17,588 nucleotides of DNA from a virus. Taxonomy: Duplodnaviria > Heunggongvirae > Uroviricota > Caudoviricetes. Below the pieces are notes generated by a model. It was not told where the DNA came from. It did no database searches and saw nothing but the letters and a program-made list of their open reading frames with translations. Both the position numbers and the translations under genes were made by a program. The stretch lies in the IMG/VR virus record IMGVR_UViG_2734482774_000007, positions 1 through 17,588 of that record; one strand, written 5' to 3'. Positions 1,261 to 17,588 of the stretch are shown piece by piece. How positions within the stretch are numbered: the stretch's first letter is position 1; every line of letters begins with the position of its first letter.

Positions 1261-1275
1261 CTTTAAAAATTTTAA

Positions 1276-1307
1276 AGTAGGGTCAAAGACCCTACTAATT
1301 ATTTTTT
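1276..1307. terminator. Bidirectional rho-independent terminator between convergent int and herA
   Basis: Perfect 9-bp stem agtagggtc / gaccctact (1276-1284 / 1288-1296) with loop aaa, T-run aattatttttt on the + strand and ttaaaattttt on the - strand. Confidence 0.7.
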
Positions 1308-3020
1308 CCATATATTGCAATAGCCTGGAGAATCAGATTCTGGTGGATATATTGGCTTATCTATCTGGATGGTCATAGGAATAGGGAAGTCAACCCCTAC
1401 AAGAGCAACTTCACCTTGTTTGAGACTTGGTAGAAAAGATGCTGCAGATTTATCAATTTCACCGCATGCACGCTCAACGACTTCTCGATCTCGGTCGTTT
1501 GTTAAGCGATGAACCAATAAGGTTCCAATTTGACTAAGCACACCTTCAGTGATATCTCTGGGTCTTTGAGTTGTTAAGCATATATTAAGGCCATATTTCC
1601 TGCCTTCTTTTGCAATCATCTCAAAAGCGTCAAGTTTAATTGCATGATCTTCAGAACCAACCCGTTTGCCAAGGAAGTTATGGGCTTCATCAACAATAAC
1701 TAACAGCGGTCTTGTTCTGAATTTTTCAAGCCTAGCTAAAGTTAAAAGTTTTCTGCCGATTACATTGGCTAAAATTTCTCTAGCATAAAACTCATAGCTA
1801 ACATCACTTAGGCATAACCTTAGGACTCGTTTATCAGATTGTAAAAAAGTTTCTAATATTTCACCTAGTGTGGATATATCCTCGTTACTATTAAAAACAG
1901 ACCTTAACGAGTTGGCATACGTTACTGCTTGAATTCTGGTTAACAAAGATGAGCAATAGCTTAAGTCTTGAGTTGCAGCGTTTCCCCAAGTATTATCTCC
2001 ATTATCGTAACAACATTCTTGTACAATCTGTTTTATAAGTTTTGTTATATCAAATGGTTGTGATGGATTATCAACAAGTTTAGAGTTGTCTCCAGTATTC
2101 ATTGCGCGTCGATAATCTGTTTTAGGTTGATTGATTTTTTTTAAAATACCATCGGTTGCTATTCTAGGTTCTAAAGCTACTAATCTAAGGCTTTTTATCG
2201 CTTCTTTTAGCTTAGGACCCTGTACTTTTCCAGAAGGATCGAACATGGCAATAAAGTCTGACTCAACAAAGTCGGTAGGTGGAATTCTAAATTCTAAAGA
2301 ATTTATGTTTTTATTTATTGGGGCACCTAAATGGTAATGTAAACAATAATCAGATTTAAACGATCTATACTCACTGGTTGCATCAATTATTATAGTTTTA
2401 GAGTTTTCGTAATTCGAACACTCTTCAATTAACTTGGAAGTTGTCCAACTTTTTCCACCGCCTGTAGCTCCTAAGATAGCACAATGACGACCGAAGAGTT
2501 TATCAGGTTCAACAGTTACTATACTTGTTGCCCCTCCAGATATAATGCCTAATACAATACCTATTCTTTCTTCCTCGTTATCTTTAATTCCTTTATTAAT
2601 TAATTCTGGTATTAAAGAAATAAAATCTAAGGGAGCAGAATAAACTCGATCTCCTAATCGAGGATATGATTTGATTCCTGAATCAATTCTAAAATTTGAA
2701 GGATCAATAGTTCCAAGAAGTTGTATAATGCCGATAGCATCAACTTTGAAGTTTCCTTGAGACCCGACAGATATTTCACCTCTATCTCGCTCTGGTAATT
2801 TAACCTCTATTAAACGGCCAAGAACAATAGATTGTTGTCCTTCTATTAATAATATTTCACCAACTTCTCCTTTTCCATATCTACAACCTTCTATATATGT
2901 TCCGCTGAGTTCCCCTGCATAGATTAAATTTGCTCTAACTGTTTGAGCAAAAATTGATGAGACTACTCCAACCTTAAGGTCGCCCCTCAAAATACCAAGC
3001 TGTAGTGTTGTATTAATCAT
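1299..3020 (-). CDS. herA: HerA-like ATPase, second gene of a SIR2-HerA anti-phage module
   Basis: 573-aa ORF. Walker A GATGGGKSWT and Walker B LLVIVDEAHNF. Start ATG overlaps the upstream gene's stop (ATGA at 3017-3020). Markedly AT-rich codon usage compared with flanking genes. Confidence 0.8.
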   Translation of the reverse strand: MINTTLQLGILRGDLKVGVVSSIFAQTVRANLIYAGELSGTYIEGCRYGKGEVGEILLIEGQQSIVLGRLIEVKLPERDRGEISVGSQGNFKVDAIGIIQLLGTIDPSNFRIDSGIKSYPRLGDRVYSAPLDFISLIPELINKGIKDNEEERIGIVLGIISGGATSIVTVEPDKLFGRHCAILGATGGGKSWTTSKLIEECSNYENSKTIIIDATSEYRSFKSDYCLHYHLGAPINKNINSLEFRIPPTDFVESDFIAMFDPSGKVQGPKLKEAIKSLRLVALEPRIATDGILKKINQPKTDYRRAMNTGDNSKLVDNPSQPFDITKLIKQIVQECCYDNGDNTWGNAATQDLSYCSSLLTRIQAVTYANSLRSVFNSNEDISTLGEILETFLQSDKRVLRLCLSDVSYEFYAREILANVIGRKLLTLARLEKFRTRPLLVIVDEAHNFLGKRVGSEDHAIKLDAFEMIAKEGRKYGLNICLTTQRPRDITEGVLSQIGTLLVHRLTNDRDREVVERACGEIDKSAASFLPSLKQGEVALVGVDFPIPMTIQIDKPIYPPESDSPGYCNIWKK

Positions 3021-4315
3021 AATTGATTGTTAACTCCTACTTGTTTTATTACCTTAGCCAACTGTTCTGCTGGGGTTAATGCTTTAAGATTGGGAACTAA
3101 TTTAACAAAATCACTGAAAGATGCATTTATGAAGTGAATGTCATAACCTGATAGTGAGAGTTGTTTTAGTAAATCCCAATATTTACTAGAACCGTCCCCC
3201 CCTTTATTCCGAATATGAGTTGCACATTTGAAATCTACTATAATCAACCTCATGCTTGGATTGGATTTTATTGCTGAGTAAATTGGTTCAGAAAGATGGT
3301 CATCATTGAAACCAAATCCAGATATAACTAAACAGTTATTTCTTTTTCTCAAGAAATCTAACAATCTTGAAAGTAATTCTAAGTGAGGTTGAATAAAGGC
3401 TTGCTGATATTTACCTTTCGCTGGATATATTAGACATGCGTTTGTTGCTGTTGGTTGGCTGGATTCATATATTTGCCCATCCTTTCTTATCCAACTTACA
3501 GAACCGTGGAGTTTAAATAACTGGAATACGCCCTCTACAAACTCATGCTCGTTTTCATCTCTTTTAACAACATCGTAGTTAAAATATTTACCATCGAATC
3601 TGCGAACTCCTGTATATGAAAGACCATCAACTACCATCATTCCTAATTCAGAAGCAGCTGTTTCAAAGGCTAAATCATAGTTAGTTGTGAAAACTTTTAG
3701 TCTAGGATCTCTGACTCTCCTCCTCCCCATTTTTTGTAATAAATTGATGTAAGCTGAAAGATCACAGTTGCCATCATCAATAAATGAGCGACATTTGTCT
3801 AAAATAATTGTTTTAACTTTATTTAAAAAATTCAACACTTCTTCATCATCATGAAATGCTAAATATGCTTCACAATTAGAAAGAAAGTGTTCTATGTTAG
3901 GATACTCTCGCTCTTTATATTTTACTTTATCACAAACAATTTGAGCATCAGGTTTTAATTGACCATCCTCGTTTATAGAAGATTCACTCCACATTGCACA
4001 CTTCCAGAGATCCCACATGCTTGGTCCTCCAACGTCCCCAAGCGAAGTACCACTCCCAGCGAAGAATGCAAGATTTGGGAATTGTAATGATTTTAGTAAT
4101 AGTTCGTTTATATATGCCTGATTGTCTTTCAACTCCTTCTTTTCACCATCAGTAAGAGATTGTGCTGGAGAAATAGAATCTCCTGACTCTTCTAAACTTT
4201 CATTCGTTATGTAGTCTCGCCAATAAATAAACGATTTACTATCTAATGCTTTCCAGTCGTTACTACCGGGTTTTAAAAATGAGATGTATCCGTCCGGATT
4301 TGTAGTCATAATCAT
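3017..4315 (-). CDS. sir2: SIR2-family (SIR2_2-type) putative NADase, first gene of the SIR2-HerA module
   Basis: 432-aa ORF. Rossmann-like FFAGSGTS, signature VFTTNYDLAFE (catalytic Asn) and FKLHGSVSW (catalytic His). Translationally coupled to herA. AT-rich. Confidence 0.8.
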   Translation of the reverse strand: MIMTTNPDGYISFLKPGSNDWKALDSKSFIYWRDYITNESLEESGDSISPAQSLTDGEKKELKDNQAYINELLLKSLQFPNLAFFAGSGTSLGDVGGPSMWDLWKCAMWSESSINEDGQLKPDAQIVCDKVKYKEREYPNIEHFLSNCEAYLAFHDDEEVLNFLNKVKTIILDKCRSFIDDGNCDLSAYINLLQKMGRRRVRDPRLKVFTTNYDLAFETAASELGMMVVDGLSYTGVRRFDGKYFNYDVVKRDENEHEFVEGVFQLFKLHGSVSWIRKDGQIYESSQPTATNACLIYPAKGKYQQAFIQPHLELLSRLLDFLRKRNNCLVISGFGFNDDHLSEPIYSAIKSNPSMRLIIVDFKCATHIRNKGGDGSSKYWDLLKQLSLSGYDIHFINASFSDFVKLVPNLKALTPAEQLAKVIKQVGVNNQL

Positions 4316-4872
4316 TATCCATTGATGTCATTAAGAGTTTGTTCCCAATAATTTACTACACCACGGCTGGAAGAAAAAGTAATCACAATCACTATCTTTG
4401 ACTACAGTGCGCACAATTATCTTCCCGCCACGCTTGCCCACCTTTAATACACGTGCATGTTTGATCTGAGGTCTTACGATATCTTGTACAGGTAGAGGTT
4501 ACAAGAGTGAGAACCATGCTCACTAAGGATGACAAATCTATAAATATTACCCGTAGCGCCGCTCAGTTTACGTGTGCTGCATCGATACACTGCAGTTCTT
4601 GAATCATTGCGGAGATTTCAGCAACTGCCAGCCAGTATCTCGTCAATCATTGTCACCGCCTGCGCGGCTGAGTTTGCTATTTTCTCCCTTAGCGCGAGCA
4701 GCCCCGCCCGCCTGCCCGCTTCGCTTAACAGACTGGTTTTCATGCACCCCGTAAATCGTCTCAGAAGCCACCACACAAGGGCTTTCGCGTCAAAAATGGC
4801 GCATGAGACTCATGCGTTTTCATGCGCCATAGATATGCACTCATACGCTCTCAGGCCAGCCAGGGAAAAGGC

Positions 4873-4899
4873 GTAAAAAATCCCGGTACTGGACCGGGA
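4873..4899 (-). terminator. Rho-independent terminator downstream of the sid-psu-ogr operon
   Basis: 7-bp stem tcccggt / accggga (4881-4887 / 4893-4899) with loop actgg, followed on the - strand by TTTTTTAC (4873-4880). Lies 22 nt past the ogr-like stop. Confidence 0.65.
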
Positions 4900-4921
4900 C
4901 TTCGTGGTCGTATTTTGCTAA

Positions 4922-5194
4922 TCAGACAGGAATTTGCTGACGGTTTGACAGCTTTGACGCGGAGCCATAGCGATTGAGAGTTTGCTGTTGTTTTTCCGGT
5001 ATTTTTGCTTTGTCTGATTCCTGTTCATTGCACCGAGGCTTCATAATTATCGTATCCACGCTTTCCAGTGCGGTAAATGTGCAGGAACATTCCAGATTCT
5101 GGCACTGATACCATGAGCGTTTAACCGACGGAGCTTCATAGGCGCTGGTTCTGGCGTGAGCGACCGCGCCACATTCAGGACACTTCAGGGCCAT
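4922..5194 (-). CDS. Ogr/Delta-family zinc-finger late transcription activator
   Basis: MALKCPECGAVAHARTSAYEAPSVKRSWYQCQNLECSCTFTALESV matches the P2 Ogr C-x2-C...C-x4-C zinc-finger pattern. ATG at 5192-5194 is preceded by AAGGAG with a 9-nt spacer, 1 nt after the psu stop. The ORF track's longer start at 5296 would overlap psu. Confidence 0.75.
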   Translation of the reverse strand: MALKCPECGAVAHARTSAYEAPSVKRSWYQCQNLECSCTFTALESVDTIIMKPRCNEQESDKAKIPEKQQQTLNRYGSASKLSNRQQIPV

Positions 5195-5195
5195 A

Positions 5196-5750
5196 TCAGC
5201 ACACTCCTTTTTCATTAAGTCGGTTAAGGCGGGCCAGGAAAACTTTATGTTGTGCCGGGGTGAAACTGGCTGAAGCATCAGCGCGCATTGATGCATCCAC
5301 CGTTAATCCGGTTTCGTCGATAATGCTCTTATATGCTGCTGAAATTACCGGAGTACGGACTTCCGTTTGTCGGGCTACAGCGGTTCGTAATATTTTCATT
5401 GCCGCCTCAAGCCCGTATGGTGCACAAAGAAAAGGAGCCAGAGCGTCAGTGAGTGCATCACCATGCTCGCTCATGAAGTTTTCAGTTGCGCTTGTAACAC
5501 AGCTTTCCAGCACAATCTGGTGAGCATAAAGACCATCCCGGGCGGCACAGTTAATCTGCCATTCGAGGAGTGCAAGACGCTCACGAAGATCCTCAAGTTG
5601 GCTGGCATATGCTGCGGGTTTTTCTTCAGTATCCAGCAAAGCAGCCAGACGAAGCTGGCTGGTACTTTGCACATTACGTAGTGTCAGCCAGCTTTTTATT
5701 GCCGCGCGGTAATCGTTGAGAGCTTCCTGAGTAATGGTTCCGGTATTCAT
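5196..5750 (-). CDS. psu: Psu-like polarity suppression protein
   Basis: 184 aa, close to P4 Psu size. Recalled similarity to P4 Psu (ALTDALAP..., ...FTPAQHKVF...). Start overlaps the sid-like stop (ATGA at 5747-5750). SD GAGAAGGA upstream. Confidence 0.7.
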   Translation of the reverse strand: MNTGTITQEALNDYRAAIKSWLTLRNVQSTSQLRLAALLDTEEKPAAYASQLEDLRERLALLEWQINCAARDGLYAHQIVLESCVTSATENFMSEHGDALTDALAPFLCAPYGLEAAMKILRTAVARQTEVRTPVISAAYKSIIDETGLTVDASMRADASASFTPAQHKVFLARLNRLNEKGVC

Positions 5751-6499
5751 TCCTTCTCGCCCCCTTTAGCCATGTCACGCTGTTTAAGCATCCGGGAACG
5801 TGCTGCAGGGCTGGGTGATTGTCTGGCATCCTGTATGGCTTTATCGTCCGCATAAATGCTGATCCCCGGCAGGGCAATATCATCCGTTGAAGATACGTTA
5901 CAGAACAGTGCCGGAGTGGTGAGTTGCTCGCTGATAAATTGCTTCAGCACACTTTCGGGGTCGTTTACGGTATGAACTACACCGATAACAGAAGATGCGC
6001 TTCGGCCCAGAGTCATTTTCAGCAGTCCAAGGATCTGAATAAGTTTCTGGCCGTGTTCCTTCATAAACTCATTCCAGAGCCACACTGCATGAGTTTCAAT
6101 CAGGTGATTATGTTCGCTGATGTAGCGGTTTGCAGCATCCGCAGTTTTCCATGGCAGGAATTCATTTTCTGCAGCCTGAGCAGCCAGCAAATCTTCGAAC
6201 TCATCTAGTGTTTCGCGTCCGAGGGCGATTTCTGCCCGCAGTTTTTTCATTCGTGGCGTCATATTCCCCTGATTCTCACGAAACAGGTTTCGCCATTCAT
6301 CATTAAGCGCCTGCGTCTCCGTTTTTGTATCTTCCTGACGTTTACGGATAGTTTCAGTCATTGCAGCAGCTTCGGTTTGTTTTCGCCGTTCTTCCTGCCA
6401 GACAGCTTTTGCTGCCTTAACTTTTTCCACCGCTTCGCGAATTTTCGGCGGGAGGGTGGGGGTAATGTTTGCATCAGAGATCTGGTTAACAGTTGTCAT
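5747..6499 (-). CDS. Sid-like capsid size-determination (external scaffold) protein, putative
   Basis: 250 aa from the ATG at 6499, which follows a GGAG SD; the track's start at 6532 is a TTG. Helical, charged sequence; position immediately upstream of psu as in the P4 late operon. Assignment is positional and compositional only. Confidence 0.5.
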   Translation of the reverse strand: MTTVNQISDANITPTLPPKIREAVEKVKAAKAVWQEERRKQTEAAAMTETIRKRQEDTKTETQALNDEWRNLFRENQGNMTPRMKKLRAEIALGRETLDEFEDLLAAQAAENEFLPWKTADAANRYISEHNHLIETHAVWLWNEFMKEHGQKLIQILGLLKMTLGRSASSVIGVVHTVNDPESVLKQFISEQLTTPALFCNVSSTDDIALPGISIYADDKAIQDARQSPSPAARSRMLKQRDMAKGGEKE

Positions 6500-6571
6500 G
6501 GCTGCTCCGGTAGTGTTTTGTTGTTGTGTCAATTGTGCCGGGGTCCATACAAGCGCACTACCGAGGAGGAT

Positions 6572-6589
6572 TGTGTCAGTGACTGAACA
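6572..6589 (-). promoter_or_regulatory. Candidate Ogr/Delta-dependent late promoter element (TGT-N12-ACA) upstream of sid
   Basis: TGTgtcagtgactgaACA, centred about 80 bp upstream of the sid ATG. This spacing suits a site centred near -55 with a short leader, as in P2/P4 late promoters. Confidence 0.45.
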
Positions 6590-6665
6590 ATGACCTTGTT
6601 CTGGCTAGCCAGAGAAAGGTGTCATGTCTGATCTACACGCTTCCTTTAATACATACTATTCACCA

Positions 6666-6757
6666 CTGTTCACTTCAATAAAAATATAGTAAATACATGT
6701 GGTTAAGTGGTGTAGTGTTTTAATTAAAGTGATCATCTACTGTTCATGACTGTTCAC
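6666..6757 (+). repeat. Three direct copies of CTGTTCA(C/T) in the divergent control region; the last two overlap a second TGT-N12-ACA (6741-6758)
   Basis: ctgttcac at 6666-6673, ctgttcat at 6740-6747, ctgttcac at 6750-6757. TGTtcatgactgttcACA at 6741-6758. Confidence 0.35.
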
Positions 6758-7404
6758 AGAGATAAAATTAAACATATATTTCTTTTTCATATAAGTCGCG
6801 ATATTTATTTCAGTTTATTACTGGATCTTTTCTCCTCACCAATATTCACCAGTATTCAATACATATTCTATGTAAAGAATAAAAGATGTCTTATATCTGT
6901 TTGATAATTGAACATTCAACCTCCCTGCACTCAGTTGCATTTCAGGAAAATATTCATAAAAATGAATTTGTCTGATGTTCATTAAACACATTCGGATACA
7001 TGCGGAAGTAAGATGGTAATTTAATTTCTTTAATCATCGGATTTATTGATACATATGGTGAGCTGTTTATTTTTGGCCGTTTTTGGCTCTTTTATTAATC
7101 AGGTGTTGTCTTAGTGCTTATGATGTAAAGCCCTGAATGATATGGGCTGGTTCAGATTTGAGCTGTGATCCTGCCTAGTGTAATAGACTTTTTTATTATT
7201 GATGCTCCTTATTATATTCCATAAAGGAATTGTTTGTTTTTGTTCGTTTCATACGGTTTTTAGCTGTTTTATTTTTTGAGAAATCAACATTTCACACAAA
7301 ATAAATAAAGCATGCGCGAGCCGCTTATATAAACATAATAAGGAGCTACCTGAATCCGCATGGAATTGCCCGGACTGTTGTAAACATATTAGAGAGGTAG
7401 CCAG

Positions 7405-7665
7405 ATGAATAGTATTTCCGTTTCCACCCCGGCACCAGCTGCTCCGGTGCTCCCGGTTCCGGCTCAGCAGGAGCGCTTCATACGATTACCTGAAGTGATG
7501 CACCTTTGCGGGCTATCCCGTTCAACCATCTACGACCTTATCAGCCGCGATGCCTTCCCGCAGCAGATATCCCTGGGTGGAAAAAATGTGGCCTGGGTAC
7601 AGTCGGAGGTCAGTGCATGGATGGCGGCGCGAATTGCTGCCCGCGAGCAAGGAGGCCATGCGTGA
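7405..7665 (+). CDS. alpA: AlpA/Vis-family phage transcriptional regulator (excisionase-like HTH)
   Basis: 86 aa. [47 protein letters not shown] fits the AlpA family HTH pattern. SD GAGAGG 7 nt upstream. Sits where P4 carries vis. Confidence 0.8.
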
Positions 7666-7759
7666 AACTTGCTTTGCAGTCTCATCTCCTTTTTTCTGGC
7701 TTGCGTCCTGATATCTTTTCCAGGTATAGTTTTCCCGCTGCCGCAAAATCGGCTGCCGG

Positions 7760-8007
7760 GCGTAGGAACCCGAGTTACTTATTGGCGACACCAGACGCGC
7801 CGTGCGTCTTTTTTTACGTCGTTGCTCAGGCACACCCATTTTTCGGGCTGCGGTGCTTATACCTTAGCCCCTTTCAGATAATGGTGGTCCGGGCGGGGCA
7901 GCCTTCGGGCTGGCCGGTTTCCAATAAGGCCGGTATTCCTACCCCCGTTCGGGTCACCACCCATGAGCGTAGGAACTCCGGTGGTGGCATTTACCGCTAC
8001 TTATTGG
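7760..8007 (+). promoter_or_regulatory. P4-type RNA immunity region: seqA-like (7760-7785), seqB/CI-like (7921-7942), seqC-like (7967-8007)
   Basis: A and C share the identical 10-mers gcgtaggaac and tacttattgg. B (ccaataaggccggtattcctac) carries the reverse complements ccaataag and ttcctac, so B can pair with either A or C. The region also holds several GC stems, including a UUCG-loop hairpin ggcagccttcgggctg near 7897. Confidence 0.45.
7793..7815 (+). terminator. Rho-independent terminator directly after the seqA-like element
   Basis: Stem agacgc / gcgtct (7793-7798 / 7804-7809) with loop gccgt, followed by a 7-T run to 7815. Confidence 0.6.
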
Positions 8008-8209
8008 AGGTTGCCCTTATGGCTACGATCCTCGCCCCGTCACATCCTCAATTTATATTTGTTTTTGCCGCCGTTCGTCGTGCAGAACGTAAACCACGTA
8101 TCAGTATGCTGCGTATCATCGCCAGCAATGAGCATCATGCACGTCTTTCACTGGTCCATGAGTATGTGCTTTGTCTTGCTGCTCGCCTGCCTGTCCGGGA
8201 GGTGATCTA

Positions 8210-8434
8210 ATGAATCACGCCGCAATCTCTTATGACGATATTCTCCGCCTGAAGCATCTTCGTAACGTGGGAGAGTTTGTCACTGGAATGGCTGTTCTTC
8301 AGGATTGCTACGAAAAACCTGCCAGTGCTCAATGTGAACAACTGGTTTCCCTGATTTATCTGATGACAGAGCAGCTTGATGGCGTGGTACAGCGTTGCCA
8401 GGATGACCTCATGAACATGGAGGTGGTGCAATGA
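8210..8434 (+). CDS. Hypothetical small protein in the satellite left operon
   Basis: 74 aa from the ATG at 8210, which follows SD GGGAGG with a 7-nt spacer. Stop overlaps the next ORF's start (ATGA at 8431-8434). Confidence 0.55.
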
Positions 8435-8754
8435 AATCACGCACTCTTTCCCTTTCACTTCGGGTAGCGTTGTATCGCCGCGCGGTAGCCTGCGCCTGGT
8501 TGAGTGCCTGCTATCAGCAAAACCGCCATCTGCAGCTCACTCTGGATGAAATTGAAACCGCTATTGCCCGTGAGCTTGAAGGATTTTATCTGCGACAGCA
8601 CGGGCAAACAAAAGGCATGGAAATCGCCTGCGCCCTGCTTTCAGACCTGATGGAATACGGCCCTCTAATGTCCTGTCCCGCACTCTCCCAGCTCGGAATA
8701 GCCGTAATGGATGAGTTATGCGTCCGTCACATCAAAAAGCCGGTTTTACACTGA
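8431..8754 (+). CDS. Hypothetical protein in the satellite left operon, immediately upstream of the primase
   Basis: 107-aa ORF, translationally coupled to the upstream ORF and ending 14 nt before the primase start. Confidence 0.55.
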
Positions 8755-8768
8755 GGGAGAACTGCGTC

Positions 8769-11102
8769 ATGTCAGGAATGAAAGTCAGTCAGGCCGTGAA
8801 GGCTGCCCGCGGTCACTGGGCTCAGATTCTGCCAGCGCTGGGCGTGAATATATTGAAAAATCGCCATCAGCCTTGCCCGGTCTGTGGCGGTAAAGATCGT
8901 TTTCGCTTCGACGATCAGGAAGGACGCGGAACATGGTTCTGCAATCAGTGCGGAGCCGGGGATGGTTTAGCGCTTGTCACCAGGGCACTGAATGTGGATA
9001 TCAGTGAAGCAGCTGACAGGATACATGGACTGACACATGATCTGTCTATAGTTAATTCCGAGGTCAGGACGTTAACCGCCGATACCGATAGCGGGAAAGA
9101 TGCAGCGGCAGCACTTGCCGCGCGACTGCTGCAAGCCTCGCGTGAATCTGCCGGAAACACTTATCTTACACATAAAGGTTTCCCGGAGCATATTTGCCAT
9201 GAGCTGACTTCAGCTCATAAGGCCGGTGGTGTGATGTTCCGCCCCGGTGATTTGATCGTCCCACTCTATAACGCTGACGGGGAGCTGGTGAATATTCAGC
9301 TTATCAGTGGCAATGGTAGCAAGTGTTTTCTTAAAGGAGGTCAGGTTAAGGAGGCCTATCATCTGATAGAAGGGGGCGGGAGTTCTGTAAGAAGGATTTG
9401 GATTGCGGAAGGTTACGCCACGGCGCTTACCATTCATTATTTGACAGGAGAAGCCGTCATGGTGGCATTTTCGTCGGTCAACTTTCTTTCTCTGAGCAGC
9501 GTTGCCCATAATAAGTATCCTGGATATCAGTTAATTATTGCAGCGGACCGCGATCTGAATGGTTCAGGCCAGAACAGGGCTGAAACTGCTGCAAAAGCGA
9601 GTCAGTGTGACATTGTGCTGCCACCGGTTTTTGGTGACTGGAATGATGCGCTTACCCAATACGGAGAGGAATCCACCCGGAAGGCAATTCTTGAGGCTTT
9701 GAAGCCACATAACGCCAGTCCTTTCGACACAATGAGTGAAGCAGAATTCACAGCGATGAGTGTCAGCGAAAAAGCTCAGAGGGTTCGGGAGCATTACAGG
9801 GATGCACTGGCGGTTGATCCGAACGGGCAGCTTTTATCCCGCTACGAGTCTGGAGCGTGGAAAGTTATTTCTCAGTCAGATTTTGCCCGAGATGTCGCAG
9901 CCCTTTTCCAGCGCCTCGGGGCACCGTTTTCCTCAGGAAAAATTGCCTCACTGGTGGAAACATTAAAGTTAATTGTTCCGCAGCAGCAAAATCCGTCACG
10001 TCATCTGATTGGTTTTCGTAATGGCGTTCTCGATACGCGAACAGGGCTTTTTAGTCCGCACTGTAAAGAGAACTGGCTGCGTACCCTGTGTGAAGTCGAT
10101 TTCACGCCACCGGTAAAGGGGGAAACGCTTGAAACTCATGCCCCGGCATTCTGGCGTTGGTTGGACCGGGCCGCCGGACACAAGCCAGCAAAACGCGACA
10201 TTATTCTTGCAGCGTTATTTATGGTGCTGGCGAACCGTTATGACTGGCAGCTCTTTCTGGAAGTGACTGGCCCTGGTGGAAGTGGCAAAAGTATTCTGGC
10301 TGAAATTGCGACCATGCTTGCTGGAGAGGATAACGCCACCTCTGCGACCATTGAAACGCTGGAGTCCCCGCGAGAACGTGCGGCTCTGATAGGTTTTTCT
10401 CTTATTCGCCTGCCTGATCAGGAGAAGTGGAGCGGCGACGGCGCCGGGCTTAAGGCTATAACTGGTGGCGATGCAGTATCTGTGGACCCCAAATATCAGA
10501 ATGCTTATTCAACACATATTCCGGCGGTTATCCTGGCCGTAAATAATAATCCTATGCGCTTCACTGATCGCAGTGGTGGTGTGTCCCGCAGGAGAGTTAT
10601 TCTGCATTTTCCTGAGCAGATAGCACCGGAAGAACGCGATCCGCAGTTGAAAGATAAAATTGCACGAGAACTGGCTGTGATTGTTCGTCAGCTCATGCAG
10701 CGTTTCAGCGATCCGATGAGCGCCAGAACATTGCTTCAGTCGCAGCAGAATTCTGATGAGGCTCTCACCATCAAGCGTGATGCTGATCCAGCATTTGATT
10801 TTTGTGGCTACCTTGAGGCATTACCTGACACCAACGGCATGTTTATGGGGAACGCCAATATTGTCCCGCGCCAGCCACGTACGTACCTTTACCATGCCTA
10901 TCTCGTATACATGGAGGCTAATGGCTTTAAAAATACCCTTAGCCTGACAATGTTTGGCAAAGGGCTACCAGTTATGCTGAAGGAATACGGGCTAAATTAT
11001 GAGAAGCGGCGAACTAATCAGGGAATGCAGACTAACCTCACTTTAAAAGAGGAAAGTAATGCAGACTGGCTTCCCAAGTGTGATGAGCTAACAATCAAAT
11101 AA
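8769..11102 (+). CDS. P4 alpha-type primase-helicase
   Basis: 777 aa from the ATG at 8769 (SD GAGGGAGA 9 nt upstream); the track's 8718 start is non-ATG. Zinc-binding primase motif CPVCGGKDRFRFDD...CNQCG; Walker A GPGGSGKS in the C-terminal helicase part. Length equals that recalled for P4 alpha. Confidence 0.9.
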   Translation: MSGMKVSQAVKAARGHWAQILPALGVNILKNRHQPCPVCGGKDRFRFDDQEGRGTWFCNQCGAGDGLALVTRALNVDISEAADRIHGLTHDLSIVNSEVRTLTADTDSGKDAAAALAARLLQASRESAGNTYLTHKGFPEHICHELTSAHKAGGVMFRPGDLIVPLYNADGELVNIQLISGNGSKCFLKGGQVKEAYHLIEGGGSSVRRIWIAEGYATALTIHYLTGEAVMVAFSSVNFLSLSSVAHNKYPGYQLIIAADRDLNGSGQNRAETAAKASQCDIVLPPVFGDWNDALTQYGEESTRKAILEALKPHNASPFDTMSEAEFTAMSVSEKAQRVREHYRDALAVDPNGQLLSRYESGAWKVISQSDFARDVAALFQRLGAPFSSGKIASLVETLKLIVPQQQNPSRHLIGFRNGVLDTRTGLFSPHCKENWLRTLCEVDFTPPVKGETLETHAPAFWRWLDRAAGHKPAKRDIILAALFMVLANRYDWQLFLEVTGPGGSGKSILAEIATMLAGEDNATSATIETLESPRERAALIGFSLIRLPDQEKWSGDGAGLKAITGGDAVSVDPKYQNAYSTHIPAVILAVNNNPMRFTDRSGGVSRRRVILHFPEQIAPEERDPQLKDKIARELAVIVRQLMQRFSDPMSARTLLQSQQNSDEALTIKRDADPAFDFCGYLEALPDTNGMFMGNANIVPRQPRTYLYHAYLVYMEANGFKNTLSLTMFGKGLPVMLKEYGLNYEKRRTNQGMQTNLTLKEESNADWLPKCDELTIK

Positions 11103-11110
11103 TTACAACT

Positions 11111-11137
11111 AACCCGGCTGATGCCGGGTTTCTTATT
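11111..11137 (+). terminator. Rho-independent terminator after the primase gene
   Basis: 8-bp stem aacccggc / gccgggtt with loop tgat, followed by tcttatt. Confidence 0.6.
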
Positions 11138-11453
11138 GGAAACGTACGAATGTAGAGATAGCAGTTCACTCTTCACCTAACTGTTAATACATAACCAATT
11201 GATATATAAATTAAAAGTTGCAGAGTGAATAGTGTGCATGGTTTTGCGAAAAAAAAGTATTTTTTGTTGAGTCAAGTCCCGGTTTGGATCCGTTTAACGG
11301 AACCTAACTGGATTGACTATTTCTTCGATAATTTTTGGATAAATAATCAACAAAAATCAAAATGTGAACAGCGAATGGAGGGGGCACAAAAGGGGGCATA
11401 ATTGAATTAATTATTAATAAAATCCATTTTTTACAACAATTTAAATGAATATG

Positions 11454-11473
11454 CGAGTCCGGCCTTCGCACCA
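11454..11473 (+). repeat. attR: direct repeat of the 3' end of tRNA-Leu (leuX)
   Basis: cgagtccggccttcgcacca resembles the recalled leuX 3' end (T-loop end, T-stem, acceptor stem, CCA) with one G missing. Upstream sequence is not tRNA-like, so only the 3' core is duplicated. Confidence 0.6.
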
Positions 11474-11489
11474 CACCGTATGCAAATCG

Positions 11490-11513
11490 AGCCGCTCAAG
11501 AGCGGCTTTTTTT
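11490..11513 (+). terminator. Rho-independent terminator following the tRNA-3'-end repeat (displaced native tRNA terminator)
   Basis: Stem agccgctc / gagcggct with a short loop, followed by a 7-T run. Confidence 0.6.
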
Positions 11514-11697
11514 GTGTCTGAAATCCGTTAGTTACCTATCTTTCTCGCTATTTTAACTCTCTCAGGGCTAACCAATTCCAACCCATCGCAAACGAAAAAT
11601 GTTGGTACAGGCGTTGGTATTTTCGGTTCGACATTAATTTGTATTAGCTCAGTCCTGATCTGACAGCTATCTGCCAGATCAGGTTCGGATTAATACA

Positions 11698-12548
11698 TTA
11701 TATCTGCCCGCCTACACCTTTAAACTTCTCAATAAACGCGACGATCTTCTGGAAAACCGTCTGTTTTTTCGTCTTATATTGCGGATTTAACGGACTGAGT
11801 TTTGGCAATGTCTCGTTTAATTCCGTGCCATTTTCGGTGGCGTATTCGCGTTTTAAAGACGTGCGAATATAGCGTTTCGCCGCCTCTTCATTGAGATTTT
11901 CTTCTTTGATCAAGGCTTCTGCTTCACGTTGCTGTTCGCGTTGAGCAAAGGTAAAAAACGCGTCAATGATGCTGGCTTTATCCGGCAAATCATCCAGGTT
12001 CGTTTGCTGAATAAAATCGACCACCAGACCTTCTTTGGCACGGTTACCAAGGCTCGAACGAATTAAGCGCTTGACCTCTTCGGTCATTTCGCCCTTACCT
12101 TTGTTTTGTCTGTTGTGTTCGAAAATCAGTCCAAGGATATAATCCAGGTTTATTTCCTGAGACTTCAGCAAATCGACCTCAAAAACCACGTCATCCCAGT
12201 CGGTGGTTGATTTTTCTTTTTTGTCAGCTTCTTTCTCACGGCGCTGCCAGTCACGAATATCGTTATAGGCTGAACGATAATCCTGAATCTTGCGATCAGC
12301 AGGGAGACGAATTATTTGCAATTCAGCGAGCTTTTCATCATCCACATAATGTTCTGCTTTGAATTTTTCTACTGCAACAGGATCACTAAGATCGATTTGT
12401 TGCAGGGCTTTCAGCGTGGCAAATTCATCATAGTTTTGCAGGATGTTCTCGGCACGCAGGTATTCACCAAACAGTTTTACGAAGTCTTTCTTCTCTTTTT
12501 CACTTTCAATATTGGCAGGGTCAGGGAACCGTTGTTCCAGTTCTGAAA
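11698..12548 (-). pseudogene. Type I restriction enzyme R subunit (HsdR) C-terminal fragment
   Basis: The frame is open from about 12545 to the stop at 11698 (about 283 codons) with no plausible ATG/RBS at its 5' end. Helical sequence ([10 protein letters not shown]..., [43 protein letters not shown]) resembles the conserved HsdR C-terminal domain as recalled. No helicase or nuclease motifs are present. Confidence 0.5.
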
Positions 12549-12803
12549 CTAGATGAAGTAGCCTTTGGTTTTGATGGCATCGTCTTTAATGTCATCAGTT
12601 ATTACGCTGTCATCCAGTTTCGCATAACAGATACTGTCATCACCGGCTTCAATATAGCTGGAAAAATTTTCGCTGATAAAACGGTAGAAAAGCGCGCCCA
12701 GAACGTATTGCTTAAAGTCCCATCCATCGACCGAACCTCTGACATCGTTAGCAATTTGCCAGATCTGGCGATGAAGCTCCGCGCGCTGCTGAAGACTGGT
12801 CAT
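12549..12803 (-). pseudogene. Type I R-M methyltransferase (HsdM) N-terminal fragment, truncated after 84 codons
   Basis: LQQRAELHRQIWQIANDVRGSVDGWDFKQYVLGALFYRFISENF is a typical HsdM N-terminal domain signature. Good RBS (AAGGA, 6-nt spacer) at the ATG at 12803. The frame ends in TAG and continues in another frame into the HsdR-like sequence, with no methyltransferase motifs. Confidence 0.65.
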
Positions 12804-13109
12804 TTTTTATCCTTTGAATGTGTTTTTAACGTCGGCTTTTGCCGGGATTTTACCGGAAGTTTTTTGGTTTTTCAGATTTGTATGATGGTGAGGAGGGGAT
12901 TCAGCACCAGATTGTTAGTGCATCTTACTCAGCATTCACCGCTTGAGTCAGGAGGCTACTTTATATGTCCATCGTCCATCCGTAGGTGATCAGATAATTT
13001 ATTGCGAGTCACCTTCCCGATTTTCAATCTCATTATTTACCCAATCTTTCACCAGTGGATAATTCGTCTGCTACTAACGGCGAGTGTATTTTTTTACGGA
13101 TGAAAGATT

Positions 13110-13943
13110 ATGCAAACAGAAGCTGAAGTCTTAACCGATCATAACGAACTAATTTGCTCGACCAGTATTGAGCGTATCGTCACAGGACGTGATAGTGCAC
13201 TGAACCAGATAGCGGCGTTAATCCAAAAGCTTGATGATATCTCCAGCCTGACATCCAGTATTGGCGGTGATGTGGCTGGAACCTGGGCAATGCGTAATGG
13301 ATATGCCTTTGATTGCTGGCTGATGCAGCCAACCGACAAAGCGATGCCGGTGATCACCCGAAATATCGATCGCAGTATCTGGCGCGATCTCATGCTGAAG
13401 TCCGGGATGTTGACTCTGATGGATGCCGAAGCCCGCAGTCAGTGGGCAAAGAACCTGGAGGAGGGCGATCTCCCGGCGATTAGCGAAGCCAACATCCTGA
13501 GTACCTTTGAACAACTTCACCACAATAAGCAGGACGTTTTCGAACGTGGGATTATCAATGTATTTAAGGGATTAAGCTGGGACTACAAAACCAATAATCC
13601 CTGTTATTTCGGTAAGAAGATTATCGTTAACAATCTGGTGAAGCATGACAGATGGGGCTACAGCCTGAACTGGGGCTGGCGGCGAGATCAGCTTGCCGAT
13701 CTGGAACGGATGTTCTATCTGCTGGATGGGAAGACCATTCCCGATAACCGGCATGATGTTGCGATTCGGTTTATGGACTTCGTTAGTGCTCACCCGCATG
13801 AACAGGTATTTGATGACGATTTATTTGTCATCCGCTATTACCAGAAAGGCAGTGGGCATATCACTTTCAAGCGACTGGATCTGGTGGATAAGATGAATGA
13901 TATCGTGGCGAAGCACTTTCCGTCAGCGTTATCAGCAAAATGA
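13110..13943 (+). CDS. Hypothetical protein (277 aa) immediately upstream of the AbiE pair
   Basis: Long ORF with ordinary codon usage and no motif I can assign by eye. Ends 70 bp before the AbiEi-like start on the same strand. Confidence 0.6.
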   Translation: MQTEAEVLTDHNELICSTSIERIVTGRDSALNQIAALIQKLDDISSLTSSIGGDVAGTWAMRNGYAFDCWLMQPTDKAMPVITRNIDRSIWRDLMLKSGMLTLMDAEARSQWAKNLEEGDLPAISEANILSTFEQLHHNKQDVFERGIINVFKGLSWDYKTNNPCYFGKKIIVNNLVKHDRWGYSLNWGWRRDQLADLERMFYLLDGKTIPDNRHDVAIRFMDFVSAHPHEQVFDDDLFVIRYYQKGSGHITFKRLDLVDKMNDIVAKHFPSALSAK

Positions 13944-14012
13944 ATGTCGTATGTTTGCTATCTAAAATGTCGTATTTTTGCTACTCTTTATGCAATGACT
14001 CTGGAGGCGAAT

Positions 14013-14408
14013 ATGACGATAAAAGCACGCATTCAGTCACGACTGAAACGTTCTAAACGTTACGTATTCACTCGTGACGACTTTAAAGATATTGCAGGCT
14101 ACGATCAGGTTGGTCGGGTATTGCGCGAGCTTGTCAGGGAAGGGCAACTGTTGAAGGTTGGTTATGGCGTGTATACCAAAGCACGGCGGAACGGTATTAC
14201 AGGCAAGGTAATGCCAGCGGCTCCCGGAGGCTCTTCAGCGGTGATTGTCGAAACGCTGGAACGCCTGAAAGTACGCTATCGTTTTGCTGGCGCAACGCAG
14301 GCATACAATAGCGGTACTTCTACGCAGATCCCAGCTTCACCCGAGATAAAAACCCCCCGGCGTTTTAAACGCGTATTATCTGTAGGGAACAGCAGATTAA
14401 ATGGATGA
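14013..14408 (+). CDS. AbiEi-family antitoxin / transcriptional regulator (type IV TA, abortive infection)
   Basis: 131 aa from the ATG at 14013 (SD GGAGG, 5-nt spacer). N-terminal RYVFTRDDFKDIAGYDQVGRVLRELVREGQLLKVGYGVYTKA fits the AbiEi winged-helix pattern. Stop overlaps the AbiEii start by 8 nt. Confidence 0.7.
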   Translation: MTIKARIQSRLKRSKRYVFTRDDFKDIAGYDQVGRVLRELVREGQLLKVGYGVYTKARRNGITGKVMPAAPGGSSAVIVETLERLKVRYRFAGATQAYNSGTSTQIPASPEIKTPRRFKRVLSVGNSRLNG

Positions 14409-15348
14409 TTTAACCACTCTTTTTTCTGAAGTGGCTGACGCGCTTGGTATTGAGTCTGTCGCAATTGTGGAAAAAGATCACTATATCGTTGAGCTTTTGC
14501 AATTGCTTAAACCTCTGGTGTTCGATACTCATCAATTGGTATTTGCCGGAGGAACCGCTCTGGCAAAATCAGGTGTCGCACTTAATCGCATGTCGGAAGA
14601 TGTGGATATCAAACTGGTGCCTAAGGATGCATTTCAGGCACTTTCCCGCACTCAGCGAAAAAATACCCGTAAAGAAATTGTTCAGGCAGTTTCCAGTGCA
14701 ATAGCTTCATCGGGTGTGTTCAATTTTGATGATGATTACCCAAAAGTGACGCGGGATGAATATCGTTATAATGACATACCTGTTCGTTATCCACAGCGAG
14801 TAGTGCAGGCACCTTGTTTGCGTCCTTTTATCCGGCTGGAATTGATGGAAGCGAAGTTACTGGAGCCTTCTGAATTACGGGATATTCATTCACTGGTAAC
14901 AGGGATCACGGGAAAAGCGGCTATTGTTTCAGCGTTTCCATGCGCAACTATCATTAGCTCACAGGCAGAAAAGCTGGTGGCGATGTTACGTCGTACTGCG
15001 GCAGTTGTGCGAGATGTTGAGCGATTTGATGATGCATCGCTGGTACGTCATATCTACGATACAAACTGTATTGTTGAGACGAGTCATGTTGATATGAGTC
15101 TGCTCGTTGATTTTGTTCAACAAACTATTGAGCAGGACATTCAGCGTTACGGCAACCAGTACCCGCAGTTTTGCGCGTCTCCAGTTGATGAGCTAAAAAT
15201 GGGACTGGATGAGTTGGCGAACAATCCTCTCTACGAGATGCGCTATCAGCAGTTTGTTTCGCCAATGGTGTATGGAGAGCGAAAGATCACATGGGATGAG
15301 GCTTACTCCAGGTTTAGGAGCTTAGCGCTAGCCATCCTGAATGCTTGA
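14401..15348 (+). CDS. AbiEii-family nucleotidyltransferase toxin (type IV TA, abortive infection)
   Basis: 315 aa. Nucleotidyltransferase motif LVFAGGTALAKSGVALNRMSEDVDIKL (GG...S-E-D-x-D) near the N-terminus. Confidence 0.8.
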   Translation: MDDLTTLFSEVADALGIESVAIVEKDHYIVELLQLLKPLVFDTHQLVFAGGTALAKSGVALNRMSEDVDIKLVPKDAFQALSRTQRKNTRKEIVQAVSSAIASSGVFNFDDDYPKVTRDEYRYNDIPVRYPQRVVQAPCLRPFIRLELMEAKLLEPSELRDIHSLVTGITGKAAIVSAFPCATIISSQAEKLVAMLRRTAAVVRDVERFDDASLVRHIYDTNCIVETSHVDMSLLVDFVQQTIEQDIQRYGNQYPQFCASPVDELKMGLDELANNPLYEMRYQQFVSPMVYGERKITWDEAYSRFRSLALAILNA

Positions 15349-15385
15349 TATGCAGCATTGTCTTTACTTGAAATTCTGAAATTCT

Positions 15386-15571
15386 CTAAACCATAGAGAT
15401 GATTTTTATGATCCAGTCTTTCTCTTGTTGAGATAGTTCCAGTTTGCTCACTCGTGTTAAGAAGGTATTGATCACCTGAACATCCGAATTGGTGAGCCTA
15501 TTTAATAGAGCGGGTGGTATACCTTTACTAACAATCGCTTTGCGGTGACTTTCGTAGTTTTTATTACTCAT
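15386..15571 (-). CDS. Small hypothetical protein (61 aa)
   Basis: ATG at 15569-15571 preceded by GAGGA with a 6-nt spacer. AT-rich. No recognisable motif. Confidence 0.4.
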   Translation of the reverse strand: MSNKNYESHRKAIVSKGIPPALLNRLTNSDVQVINTFLTRVSKLELSQQEKDWIIKIISMV

Positions 15572-15636
15572 TGTTGATCCTCAAATATCATTGTATGGCG
15601 GCATTGATCGTTTCCAGCAACCTTTACTTACTCACT

Positions 15637-15813
15637 TCAAACTGCATCCTCGTAGACTGTTCCACTACAATAATCGAAAAGGCGTGGATGTCCATTCAGG
15701 TATCCCGCTAATACGTATAGCAATAACAATGGTTTATGCGGTGCGCGCTGTTCACCCTTATGCCAGATTTTTATATTGGCAATTGCCTGCTGTAGCGATT
15801 TACTGGAAGCCAT
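15637..15813 (-). CDS. Small hypothetical protein (about 58 aa from the internal ATG)
   Basis: The track ORF starts at a TTG (15870). The internal ATG at 15811-15813 (MASSKSLQQ...) is preceded by AGGGA with a 5-nt spacer. Could be a fragment. Confidence 0.3.
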   Translation of the reverse strand: MASSKSLQQAIANIKIWHKGEQRAPHKPLLLLYVLAGYLNGHPRLFDYCSGTVYEDAV

Positions 15814-15949
15814 TGATATCCCTGGCAGTGAAATAATTGCGATCATGCTCGCAAATTTTCTGCTGTTCAAGCCTGCAAGTGAAGATATATTACTTTGATC
15901 TCATTTGTTTTTTTGCTGCTTGTTCTGAGAACGTATAAGGACATTCTCT

Positions 15950-16600
15950 ATGAATAAACTCCCCGATCATCTTCCGCGGCGGTATATCATCGAAGCTATT
16001 CATTTATGGGATGCGGGAGAAACTCATCAGTTCCAGCCTGCACGGTTGTATGAAATTGAATATCATGGCCGACGTTACCCCTCGAAGGCGATTGCTGGCA
16101 TCGCAGCGACATTGATGACGGGGACGCAATTTACCCCTGCGGATTTCACCGGCGGAATAAAATCTAAATGTGTCAAGCTACTCATAGAGCAGGGATTTCA
16201 TATTCATCAGGATAAAGCCGCTGCGGCTCCCATAGCCGACGTTCTGTTCCCGGATGAGCTGCCGTCGCAGGGGACCTACGTTGAAGGTGCGGCGATAAAG
16301 GTGACAGTAAACCGCTATGAACGCGATAAAAAGGCCCGAGATAAAGCGGTCGAACATCATGGATGCCAATGCAACGTATGCGGCGTTGATCTGGTGAAGA
16401 TCTATGGTGATATCGCTGAAGGCTTTATCCATGTGCATCACCTGGTGCCGCTTTCAGCCATTAAAGAGGATTACCAGCTGGATCCAGTTAATGATTTGCT
16501 TCCTGTGTGCCCTAATTGCCATGCGATGCTGCACCGACGCAAACCACCGTTTACGCCGGAGCAGTTAAAAGCGCTAATGGATGCGAATAAATCAAATTAA
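15950..16600 (+). CDS. HNH endonuclease family protein with an uncharacterised N-terminal domain
   Basis: 216 aa. C-terminal HNH/zinc-binding motif CQCNVCG...HVHHLVPLS...NDLLPVCPNCHAMLH. SD AAGGA upstream. Stop is 7 bp from the convergent nanS stop. Confidence 0.8.
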   Translation: MNKLPDHLPRRYIIEAIHLWDAGETHQFQPARLYEIEYHGRRYPSKAIAGIAATLMTGTQFTPADFTGGIKSKCVKLLIEQGFHIHQDKAAAAPIADVLFPDELPSQGTYVEGAAIKVTVNRYERDKKARDKAVEHHGCQCNVCGVDLVKIYGDIAEGFIHVHHLVPLSAIKEDYQLDPVNDLLPVCPNCHAMLHRRKPPFTPEQLKALMDANKSN

Positions 16601-16607
16601 TGAACGC

Positions 16608-17588
16608 TCACCTTTCGCGCCAAAACTGCAAAATTGCTTCTACAAACCTGTCAGAAATAATCCCCCGACGGGCTGCCGCGCTGAAATGACTGCTTCGCAG
16701 TGCCGTCGTCCAGTTCTCCGGTGACCGGTACGCTGAACCGTAATATCCCATGATTAAATCGTCCGGGTCTTCATCAGGCGCGTTCGTCAGTCCTCTTTCA
16801 CCTTGTTGCTGGAAGTCGACGAAAATAATATTAGCTAAAACATTATTTTGATAATTGCCATAAATAGCTTCATACGCATGAGGGAAATTTTCTTTCCAGT
16901 ACCAGGTGGTATCGCCGCAAAACCACGGCGCGTCAGTAATTTTATTAAGCTGAGAATGGTATTGTTTTAGATCCCTACGAAAGGCTTCAACCATATGATT
17001 AAAGTGTTGAGGGTGTGACGAGTAGTCACAGGTCATTAAGTCAAATTCGCCTTGCATCCAGCATACGCCGAGGAATTTGTTCTGCGGATTTTTTGCCAGT
17101 GCGGCTCGCGTTCTGCTGACTAAATCCTGGTATAGCGGAGTATCCGTTCCCCAACGACAAGCATCATGGCTGGCTCCGTGCCGTTCTGAATATGTCCCTT
17201 CGCTGCCTGCGATAAAAGCCGAGCCGCCACGACAACATGGAACGATGAGAACCCCTGCATTATCAGGAATGAAGGGCAGTAATTTCCGTGCAATATGCAG
17301 TGCCTGGCCAACGGTGCCGTACTGTGTTTGATGATTCGTTGCCAGAGGATGGTGATAACCCTGCATATCCTGAACATCGTGTGGGCAGTGAGTCAGTGGA
17401 ATAATGTCGTTAAAGTGACATGACGGGCCTCCGGGATGCGTATGCGCAAATCTTGCTAATTGTTTAATTCTGGGATGAGGCGCATCTTCCCTGTCCGGTA
17501 ATGGCAGTCCTTCGCCATACGCCATGGCATTAGACTGACCAGCAACGGTAAGAACATAGTAATAATCGGGCGATATTATTGCGTCCAT
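16608..17588 (-). CDS. nanS: Sialate O-acetylesterase NanS/YjhS (SGNH-type hydrolase)
   Basis: 326-aa ORF starting with an ATG exactly at the window end. Recognised from recalled E. coli YjhS/NanS (MDAIISPDYYYVLTVAGQSNAMAYGEGLPLPD...FWRER). Higher GC than the cargo, consistent with a core gene. Confidence 0.8.
   Translation of the reverse strand: MDAIISPDYYYVLTVAGQSNAMAYGEGLPLPDREDAPHPRIKQLARFAHTHPGGPSCHFNDIIPLTHCPHDVQDMQGYHHPLATNHQTQYGTVGQALHIARKLLPFIPDNAGVLIVPCCRGGSAFIAGSEGTYSERHGASHDACRWGTDTPLYQDLVSRTRAALAKNPQNKFLGVCWMQGEFDLMTCDYSSHPQHFNHMVEAFRRDLKQYHSQLNKITDAPWFCGDTTWYWKENFPHAYEAIYGNYQNNVLANIIFVDFQQQGERGLTNAPDEDPDDLIMGYYGSAYRSPENWTTALRSSHFSAAARRGIISDRFVEAILQFWRER

Follow-up and report, generated by a model that had tools for sequence, protein, structure and literature searches.

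The question raised by this locus is whether an AbiEi/AbiEii toxin–antitoxin (TA) pair is joined by a third component. In the 17,588-nucleotide (nt) stretch of DNA analysed here (the window; positions 1 to 17,588 of IMG/VR virus record IMGVR_UViG_2734482774_000007), a gene for a 277-amino-acid (aa) protein (13110..13943, + strand, intact and with an ATG start) is followed on the same strand, after a 69-nt spacer (13944-14012, +), by abiEi (14013..14408, +), which encodes a short DUF6088-type antitoxin/repressor of 131 aa with an isoelectric point of 11.1, and by abiEii (14401..15348, +), which encodes a DUF1814 nucleotidyltransferase toxin of 315 aa; in the open reading frame (ORF) list the two abiE genes have 8 nt in common (14401-14408). 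An earlier note on this DNA had described the layout correctly, with the gap given as 70 bp, and had suggested that the 277-aa protein, for which it saw no assignable motif, could be a third AbiE component such as a sensor or a regulator, or an unrelated defence gene. To the question as posed the result is negative: nothing found here points to a novel form of AbiE made up of three genes. It is very likely that the 277-aa gene and AbiE are two independent modules lying side by side, the first an island-backbone gene and the second a self-contained cassette in the variable slot next to it.

The 277-aa protein can be assigned to a family after all. It matches Pfam PF13708 (DUF4942) with an E-value of 5.7e-69 over residues 83-271, corresponding to profile positions 1-189 of 190, and on this evidence its gene is a DUF4942/YdiA-family gene. 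There are 2170 relatives among cluster representatives, most of them stand-alone, 255-295 aa long and aligned with the query from end to end. Comparison with eight homologues gives ratios of non-synonymous to synonymous substitution (dN/dS) of 0.06-0.13 for the gene, which is intact and under strong purifying selection. The AbiE assignment is equally clear: AbiEi matches PADLOC PDLC02229 (E-value, 3e-53) and Pfam DUF6088 and AbiEi_4, and AbiEii matches PADLOC PDLC02297 (E-value, 1.3e-126) and Pfam PF08843 (E-value, 5.3e-29) and contains the Pol-beta-type motifs GGTAL...SEDVDIK. The pair thus has the hallmarks of the AbiE family, a DUF1814/AbiEii toxin with an AbiEi-type winged-helix antitoxin directly upstream in a bicistronic, overlapping arrangement, and its description in the earlier note as a typical overlapping two-gene TA pair is upheld by the Pfam and PADLOC matches. 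The AbiEi frame is already open from 13944 (longest ORF 13944-14408, +), and the functional start is predicted to be the ATG at 14013, yielding 131 aa, because a GGAGG precedes it and because the RefSeq annotations of identical loci and the start of the PDLC02229 profile both agree with it (residues 24-153 of the longest-frame protein align with profile positions 1-128 of 131). At those identical loci the RefSeq names are 'DUF4942 domain-containing protein', 'DUF6088 family protein' and 'nucleotidyl transferase AbiEii/AbiGii toxin family protein'; both families are thus known, and the exact three-gene arrangement is annotated in more than 130 RefSeq Escherichia coli genomes.

The first line of evidence for independence comes from the neighbourhoods of DUF4942. 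Among complete E. coli genomes, 544 carry this DUF4942 gene and only 134 of the 544 also carry AbiE; in the non-AbiE genomes homology ends about 30 nt past the DUF4942 stop codon. A species-level sample of 80 loci from different Enterobacterales genomes has CbtA (77/80), RadC (74/80) and YeeU (68/80) upstream on the same strand, and AbiEi and AbiEii downstream at six and three loci respectively. Seen from the DUF4942 side, neither sample therefore shows the reciprocal co-occurrence with AbiE expected of a three-gene variant, or the neighbourhood conservation that the earlier note had proposed to look for. Among the first two downstream ORFs, Pfam matches instead identify ribbon–helix–helix (RHH)/ParE at 11-13 loci, the rpoD and mug chromosome flank at seven, DarT with Macro at five, the integrase of a next element at five, the folD flank at four, Mrr at four, PIN at three and DUF6088 at three. 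Annotated gene orders include ...DUF932-RadC-YeeU-CbtA-DUF4942 followed by AbiE or by CopG-RelE/ParE, and hsdRSM (− strand) with DUF4942 (+ strand) followed by McrBC or AbiE. Since the CbtA side is conserved and the downstream genes vary, the conserved backbone of CP4-like integrative islands ends with DUF4942, and a variable cargo slot lies behind it. That DUF4942 is found far more often without AbiE than with it, and is common on AbiE-free conjugative plasmids and phages, speaks against a role as a third AbiE component, as does the composition of the slot itself: locus L061 has CopG and then AbiE after DUF4942, L041 stacks DarTG, CopG and AbiE in series, and only AbiEi remnants are seen at L014, L037 and L055. 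The AbiEi-like ORFs at these last three loci, without a detectable AbiEii and adjoining CopG/RelE cassettes, may be what is left of AbiE cassettes that decayed, or may be orphan antitoxins. In Pectobacterium and relatives (L039, L041, L042, L043 and L059) the slot is occupied by a DarTG pair composed of DarT (215 aa) and Macro (~350 aa) proteins.

The window protein resembles DUF4942 members of pathogenicity and CP4-like islands in its length, its invariant residues and its near-whole profile match. Whereas those relatives follow YeeU-CbtA, however, the neighbours on the CbtA side are gone in the window, where an hsdM remnant takes their place and the DUF4942 gene is divergent to a deleted type I restriction–modification (R-M) operon. 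DUF4942 here is most probably the right-end remnant of a CP4-like island at leuX/nanS, beside the decayed type I R-M genes and a P4-like element, and the slot behind it holds abiEi-abiEii with their own operator and promoter in the window and McrBC, CopG/ParE, DarT-Macro, PIN, Mrr or nothing in relatives.

AbiE is likewise found without DUF4942. A metagenome scan with AbiEii as the query gave 80 loci, and DUF4942 is missing from all sampled loci with AbiEii at or below 54% identity (~37 of the 80), and also from the neighbourhoods of two closer AbiE relatives, L111 (61%) and L115 (64%). At the DUF4942-free loci inspected, AbiE has as neighbours AraC/GyrI, NlpC/P60 and MotB, Rep3, GH30 or hsdM. 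Three such loci from marine and other metagenomes (L167, L165 and L157) have AbiE pairs at 44-45% identity with a type I hsdM directly after them, and are another case of AbiE within R-M/defence clusters.

What does accompany AbiE is a pair of repeats. A repeat search located two 18-nt direct repeats, AATGTCGTAT(G/T)TTTGCTA, 23 nt apart immediately behind DUF4942 in the window (13943..13983, +). The consensus (A/G)TGTCGTAT(G/T)TTTGCT, with the same 23-nt spacing, precedes AbiEi whether or not a locus has DUF4942, every inspected DUF4942-free AbiE locus keeping TGTCGTAT(G/T)TTTGCT repeats upstream of AbiEi, and in most loci an extended -10 element, TGnTATGAT, overlaps the second repeat. The direct repeats are probably the AbiEi operator, overlapping the abiE promoter, and we infer binding of AbiEi from this arrangement. 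L104 has three direct operator repeats (about 4500-4612), and in L115 (about 2150-2260) an extra inverted copy of the repeat (agcaaacatacgaca) lies upstream of two direct ones. The repeats and the extended -10 element accompany AbiE wherever its surroundings are unrelated, so that control is a property of the cassette itself, and the existence elsewhere of stand-alone AbiE pairs with the same operator argues against a third component.

The two modules also differ in their histories. When the window is compared with E. coli loci in which DUF4942 stands in the CbtA context, 45-65 of the 834 nt of DUF4942 differ (5.4-7.8%), as against no more than 10 of the 1405 nt of the spacer and AbiE (0.2-0.6%). 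Divergence thus changes tenfold across the DUF4942 stop codon, which counts against a single three-gene defence unit. In a tree of 121 sequences the AbiE-linked DUF4942 genes are polyphyletic, falling in at least four places among McrBC-, ParE- and otherwise linked genes. Neither the divergence across the stop codon nor the tree thus shows the common history of the three genes that was looked for, and DUF4942 and AbiE are shown to be separate evolutionary and regulatory units.

Replacement of the cargo is seen at leuX. Alignment of the window by blastn with L003 and L006, together with alignment of the junctions, delimits an exchangeable segment (13974..15669, +) that is replaced in otherwise collinear leuX loci by McrBC and an intact gene for a phosphorothioated-DNA-dependent endonuclease. 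In two of the E. coli leuX loci with McrBC, L003 (8000-8022) and L004 (8000-8024), the whole of repeat 1 and 8 nt of repeat 2 are still present right after the DUF4942 stop codon, and these partial operator repeats indicate that an AbiE cassette once stood there and gave way to McrBC. In other loci, DUF4942 alleles that are nearly identical adjoin McrBC or ParE, a further point against a DUF4942 protein dedicated to AbiE. Within DUF4942 itself, a mismatch histogram shows that the 3′ third of the gene contains a mosaic patch of 200 nt (13710..13909, +), in which two allele types differ at ~20% of nucleotides, compared with 2-4% elsewhere in DUF4942. The patch allele that a locus has does not follow its cargo: of two McrBC-linked loci, L004 has the L001-type patch and L003 that of the window. 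The cassettes would be swapped by homologous recombination, with DUF4942 and the right flank as the arms. P4-like satellite hotspots are said to carry variable defence and TA cargo flanked by conserved genes; the slot described here is similar in its conserved flanking gene and interchangeable defence/TA cargo, although the anchor is DUF4942 at the end of a CP4-like island. The DUF4942 3′ flank behaves as an exchange site for TA and restriction cassettes. The literature that could be searched gave no named description of this cargo slot; neither the slot nor the DUF4942 family is a discovery from this window.

Several observations weigh against the independence of the two modules. Where AbiEii is at least 56% identical, DUF4942 is present in about 40 of the 42 metagenome loci whose upstream DNA reaches far enough; in these linked loci it sits at a fixed offset (-1290 to -1296 relative to the start of AbiEii), with a gap of 69-70 nt, and the DUF4942 proteins have themselves diverged to 55-72% identity. 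Of all the observations this one favours the proposal of the earlier note most. This divergent AbiE-linked DUF4942 clade was sampled through AbiEii, and the sample is biased accordingly. In E. coli, each of the 134 complete copies of this AbiE has DUF4942 next to it. The window abiE promoter is a weak match (TGCTACTCT), its -10 element being weaker than in relatives, and a scan of the intergenic region revealed no terminator-like site between DUF4942 and abiE, which are on the same strand. The fixed spacing, the co-divergence of DUF4942 and AbiE to ~56% identity, the complete linkage in E. coli and the same-strand order with no predicted terminator are what would be expected if DUF4942 were a true third component of an AbiE subclade, perhaps a sensor, a trigger-binding factor or a regulator within one three-gene defence unit. 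We regard this as very improbable, given the evidence set out above and the bicistronic nature of characterised AbiE systems (PMC3985639), and we ascribe the linkage seen from the AbiE side to a common home in a single family of islands, not to a common function. The third-component proposal of the earlier note is therefore not supported: DUF4942 occurs mostly without AbiE, AbiE with the same operator occurs without DUF4942, and the two differ in divergence. Of the findings that the earlier note had named as counting against its proposal, the lack of co-conservation with AbiE is seen from the DUF4942 side, whereas well-characterised homologues are not, the family being known but functionally uncharacterised.

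A weaker form of association is that DUF4942 is only transcriptionally coupled to the cassette, read-through from its promoter adding to abiE expression with no involvement of the protein. Because the genes share a strand and no terminator-like site lies between them, such read-through is possible, and the 69-nt gap and the comparatively weak -10 element of the window promoter are consistent with it. The repeats and extended -10 element that accompany AbiE into unrelated contexts argue for control by the cassette itself, and we consider coupling to be a possible but somewhat unlikely account of the locus.

With DUF4942 and AbiE taken as independent modules, the remaining interest lies in the cassette slot and in the DUF4942/YdiA family, which is under strong purifying selection, is present on thousands of conjugative plasmids and is typically encoded by the first gene to enter the recipient. 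A few homologues of 460-560 aa and several phage proteins have an N-terminal DUF4942 domain followed by (F/Y)xTP, LEPSAGxG and MNPPF motifs; the fused phage 'DNA methyltransferases' include phiPSA1 gp22 (Pseudomonas) and Aeromonas phage 56 gp39 (PHROG 6263). To judge from these motifs, the C-terminal domain of the fused forms is a gamma-class N6-adenine methyltransferase, and no further C-terminal domain that could serve in target recognition was seen in the fused proteins. W91, D197, H250 and N263 are invariant and common to fused and stand-alone DUF4942 forms, so that the window protein shares this domain and its four invariant residues with these phage orphan methyltransferases, but lacks their gamma-class domain with its LEPSAGxG and NPPF motifs. 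The presence of a methyltransferase domain in the longer homologues, and the naming of some members in databases as 'methyltransferase domain protein' or 'restriction methylase', might suggest that the 277-aa protein is an orphan DNA methyltransferase or a stand-alone defence gene. It ends before that domain, however, has no S-adenosylmethionine (SAM)-binding or NPPF motif and no Pfam methyltransferase match, and as far as its sequence can tell cannot itself be a methyltransferase; it also matches none of the PADLOC-DB 2.0 families at an E-value of 0.01 or below. We therefore view this alternative as extremely improbable. The 'unrelated defence gene' of the earlier note came closest to the truth, in that the gene is unrelated to AbiE; the defence part is not borne out, given the lack of a PADLOC match, the mobile-element backbone position and the plasmid leading-region type of the family.

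Distant DUF4942 homologues, 36-40% identical to the window protein, were found by tblastn on 4451 plasmids, of which 4079 are conjugative. On an IncI-gamma/K plasmid DUF4942 adjoins mobC/nikA and the origin of transfer (oriT), in line with ardA, psiB and psiA, and its surroundings on an IncL pOXA-48-like plasmid are klcA, ssb and a JAB/RadC-like gene. In the survey by Samuel et al. (2024; PMC11541004, Suppl. Table 1) the family appears as number 24, 'Uncharacterized; DUF4942; Methyltransferase', with 2171 members, enrichment in the leading region (false discovery rate p=0) and a median position of 1, the first ORF, from oriT. This location and the architecture of the fused forms suggest that DUF4942 would act early after transfer, as an establishment or anti-restriction factor. 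We tentatively propose, at rather less than even odds, a stand-alone DUF4942 that serves in this way as a DNA-recognition module of the phage-methyltransferase lineage, acting without methyl transfer. The AlphaFold2 model is confident (mean predicted local distance difference test score, pLDDT 90.8), and is helical in its N-terminal half and alpha/beta in its C-terminal half; the profile search that the earlier note had recommended gave the DUF4942 match, and the structure searches it had also recommended found no solved structural relative for this model, so that the DNA-recognition idea draws no support from known structures. A broader proposal, that DUF4942 is the recognition half of an orphan adenine-methyltransferase lineage, retained without catalysis as a first-expressed establishment or anti-restriction factor, and is at the same time the recombination anchor of the CP4-like cassette slot, seems to us distinctly unlikely as a whole; on such a reading the protein could shield DNA, or could redirect or stimulate a resident gamma-class methyltransferase such as HsdM in a Ral-like manner.

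The AbiE pair itself is similar to AbiE of Lactococcus, Streptococcus agalactiae and Serratia and to MenAT of Mycobacterium tuberculosis in its bicistronic overlapping operon, in its DUF1814 toxin with GG...DxD motifs and helix–turn–helix antitoxin, and in upstream repeats compatible with autoregulation. It departs from them in that its antitoxin is of the short 131-aa DUF6088 type, and in that its operator consists of direct repeats, whereas PMC7319586 describes inverted-repeat operators for the S. agalactiae and M. tuberculosis systems. By analogy with published AbiE and MenT work (PMC3985639, PMC7725324, PMC7450476, PMC11375011 and bioRxiv 10.64898/2026.01.19.700257), AbiEi would bind the repeats, repress its own promoter and neutralize AbiEii, and AbiEii would be a nucleotidyltransferase toxin that probably targets tRNA, leading to abortive infection or addiction.

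The rest of the window is a patchwork of the leuX/nanS-side island of E. coli, with an integrase (1-1260), P4-like psu/delta and primase genes, and nanS. Between the integrase and the P4-like psu/delta-type genes is a SIR2-HerA defence pair (1299-4315, − strand), consisting of a HerA ATPase of 572 aa (PADLOC E-value, 1.7e-166) and a SIR2 protein of 431 aa (E-value, 6.9e-82); the close relative L002 has Dsr2 at this position. The type I R-M remnant (11698..12803, −) comprises the C-terminus of HsdR (11698-12345; EcoR124_C) and the N-terminus of HsdM (12549-12803; HsdM_N). Relative to L002, where hsdR-hsdS-hsdM are intact as they are in L003, the window has a clean 4.9-kb deletion running from inside hsdM to inside hsdR and corresponding to L002 8711-13600; the joint is at 12550/12551, with window position 12551 matching both L002 8710 and 13601.

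Downstream of abiEii there is a conserved hypothetical ORF of 61 aa (15386-15571, −) with no family match, also annotated in L002, and then the N-terminal fragment of a truncated gene for a phosphorothioated-DNA-binding restriction endonuclease (15637..15870, −), which matches the N-terminus of a 290-aa protein of L003. The latter gene is intact in L003 and L006 and annotated as a pseudogene in L002. An HNH endonuclease gene (15950..16600, +; 216 aa, Pfam HNH) is present in L002, L003 and L006 as well, and is the conserved right flank of the variable leuX slot. Finally, we note that L001 (NZ_CP026085.1), which is labelled E. coli DH5alpha, contains ISVsa5, has DUF4942-AbiE in a CP4-like island, and carries another island with integrase, HerA and kinase genes; this content is unexpected for a K-12 derivative, and the strain label may not match the organism that was sequenced.

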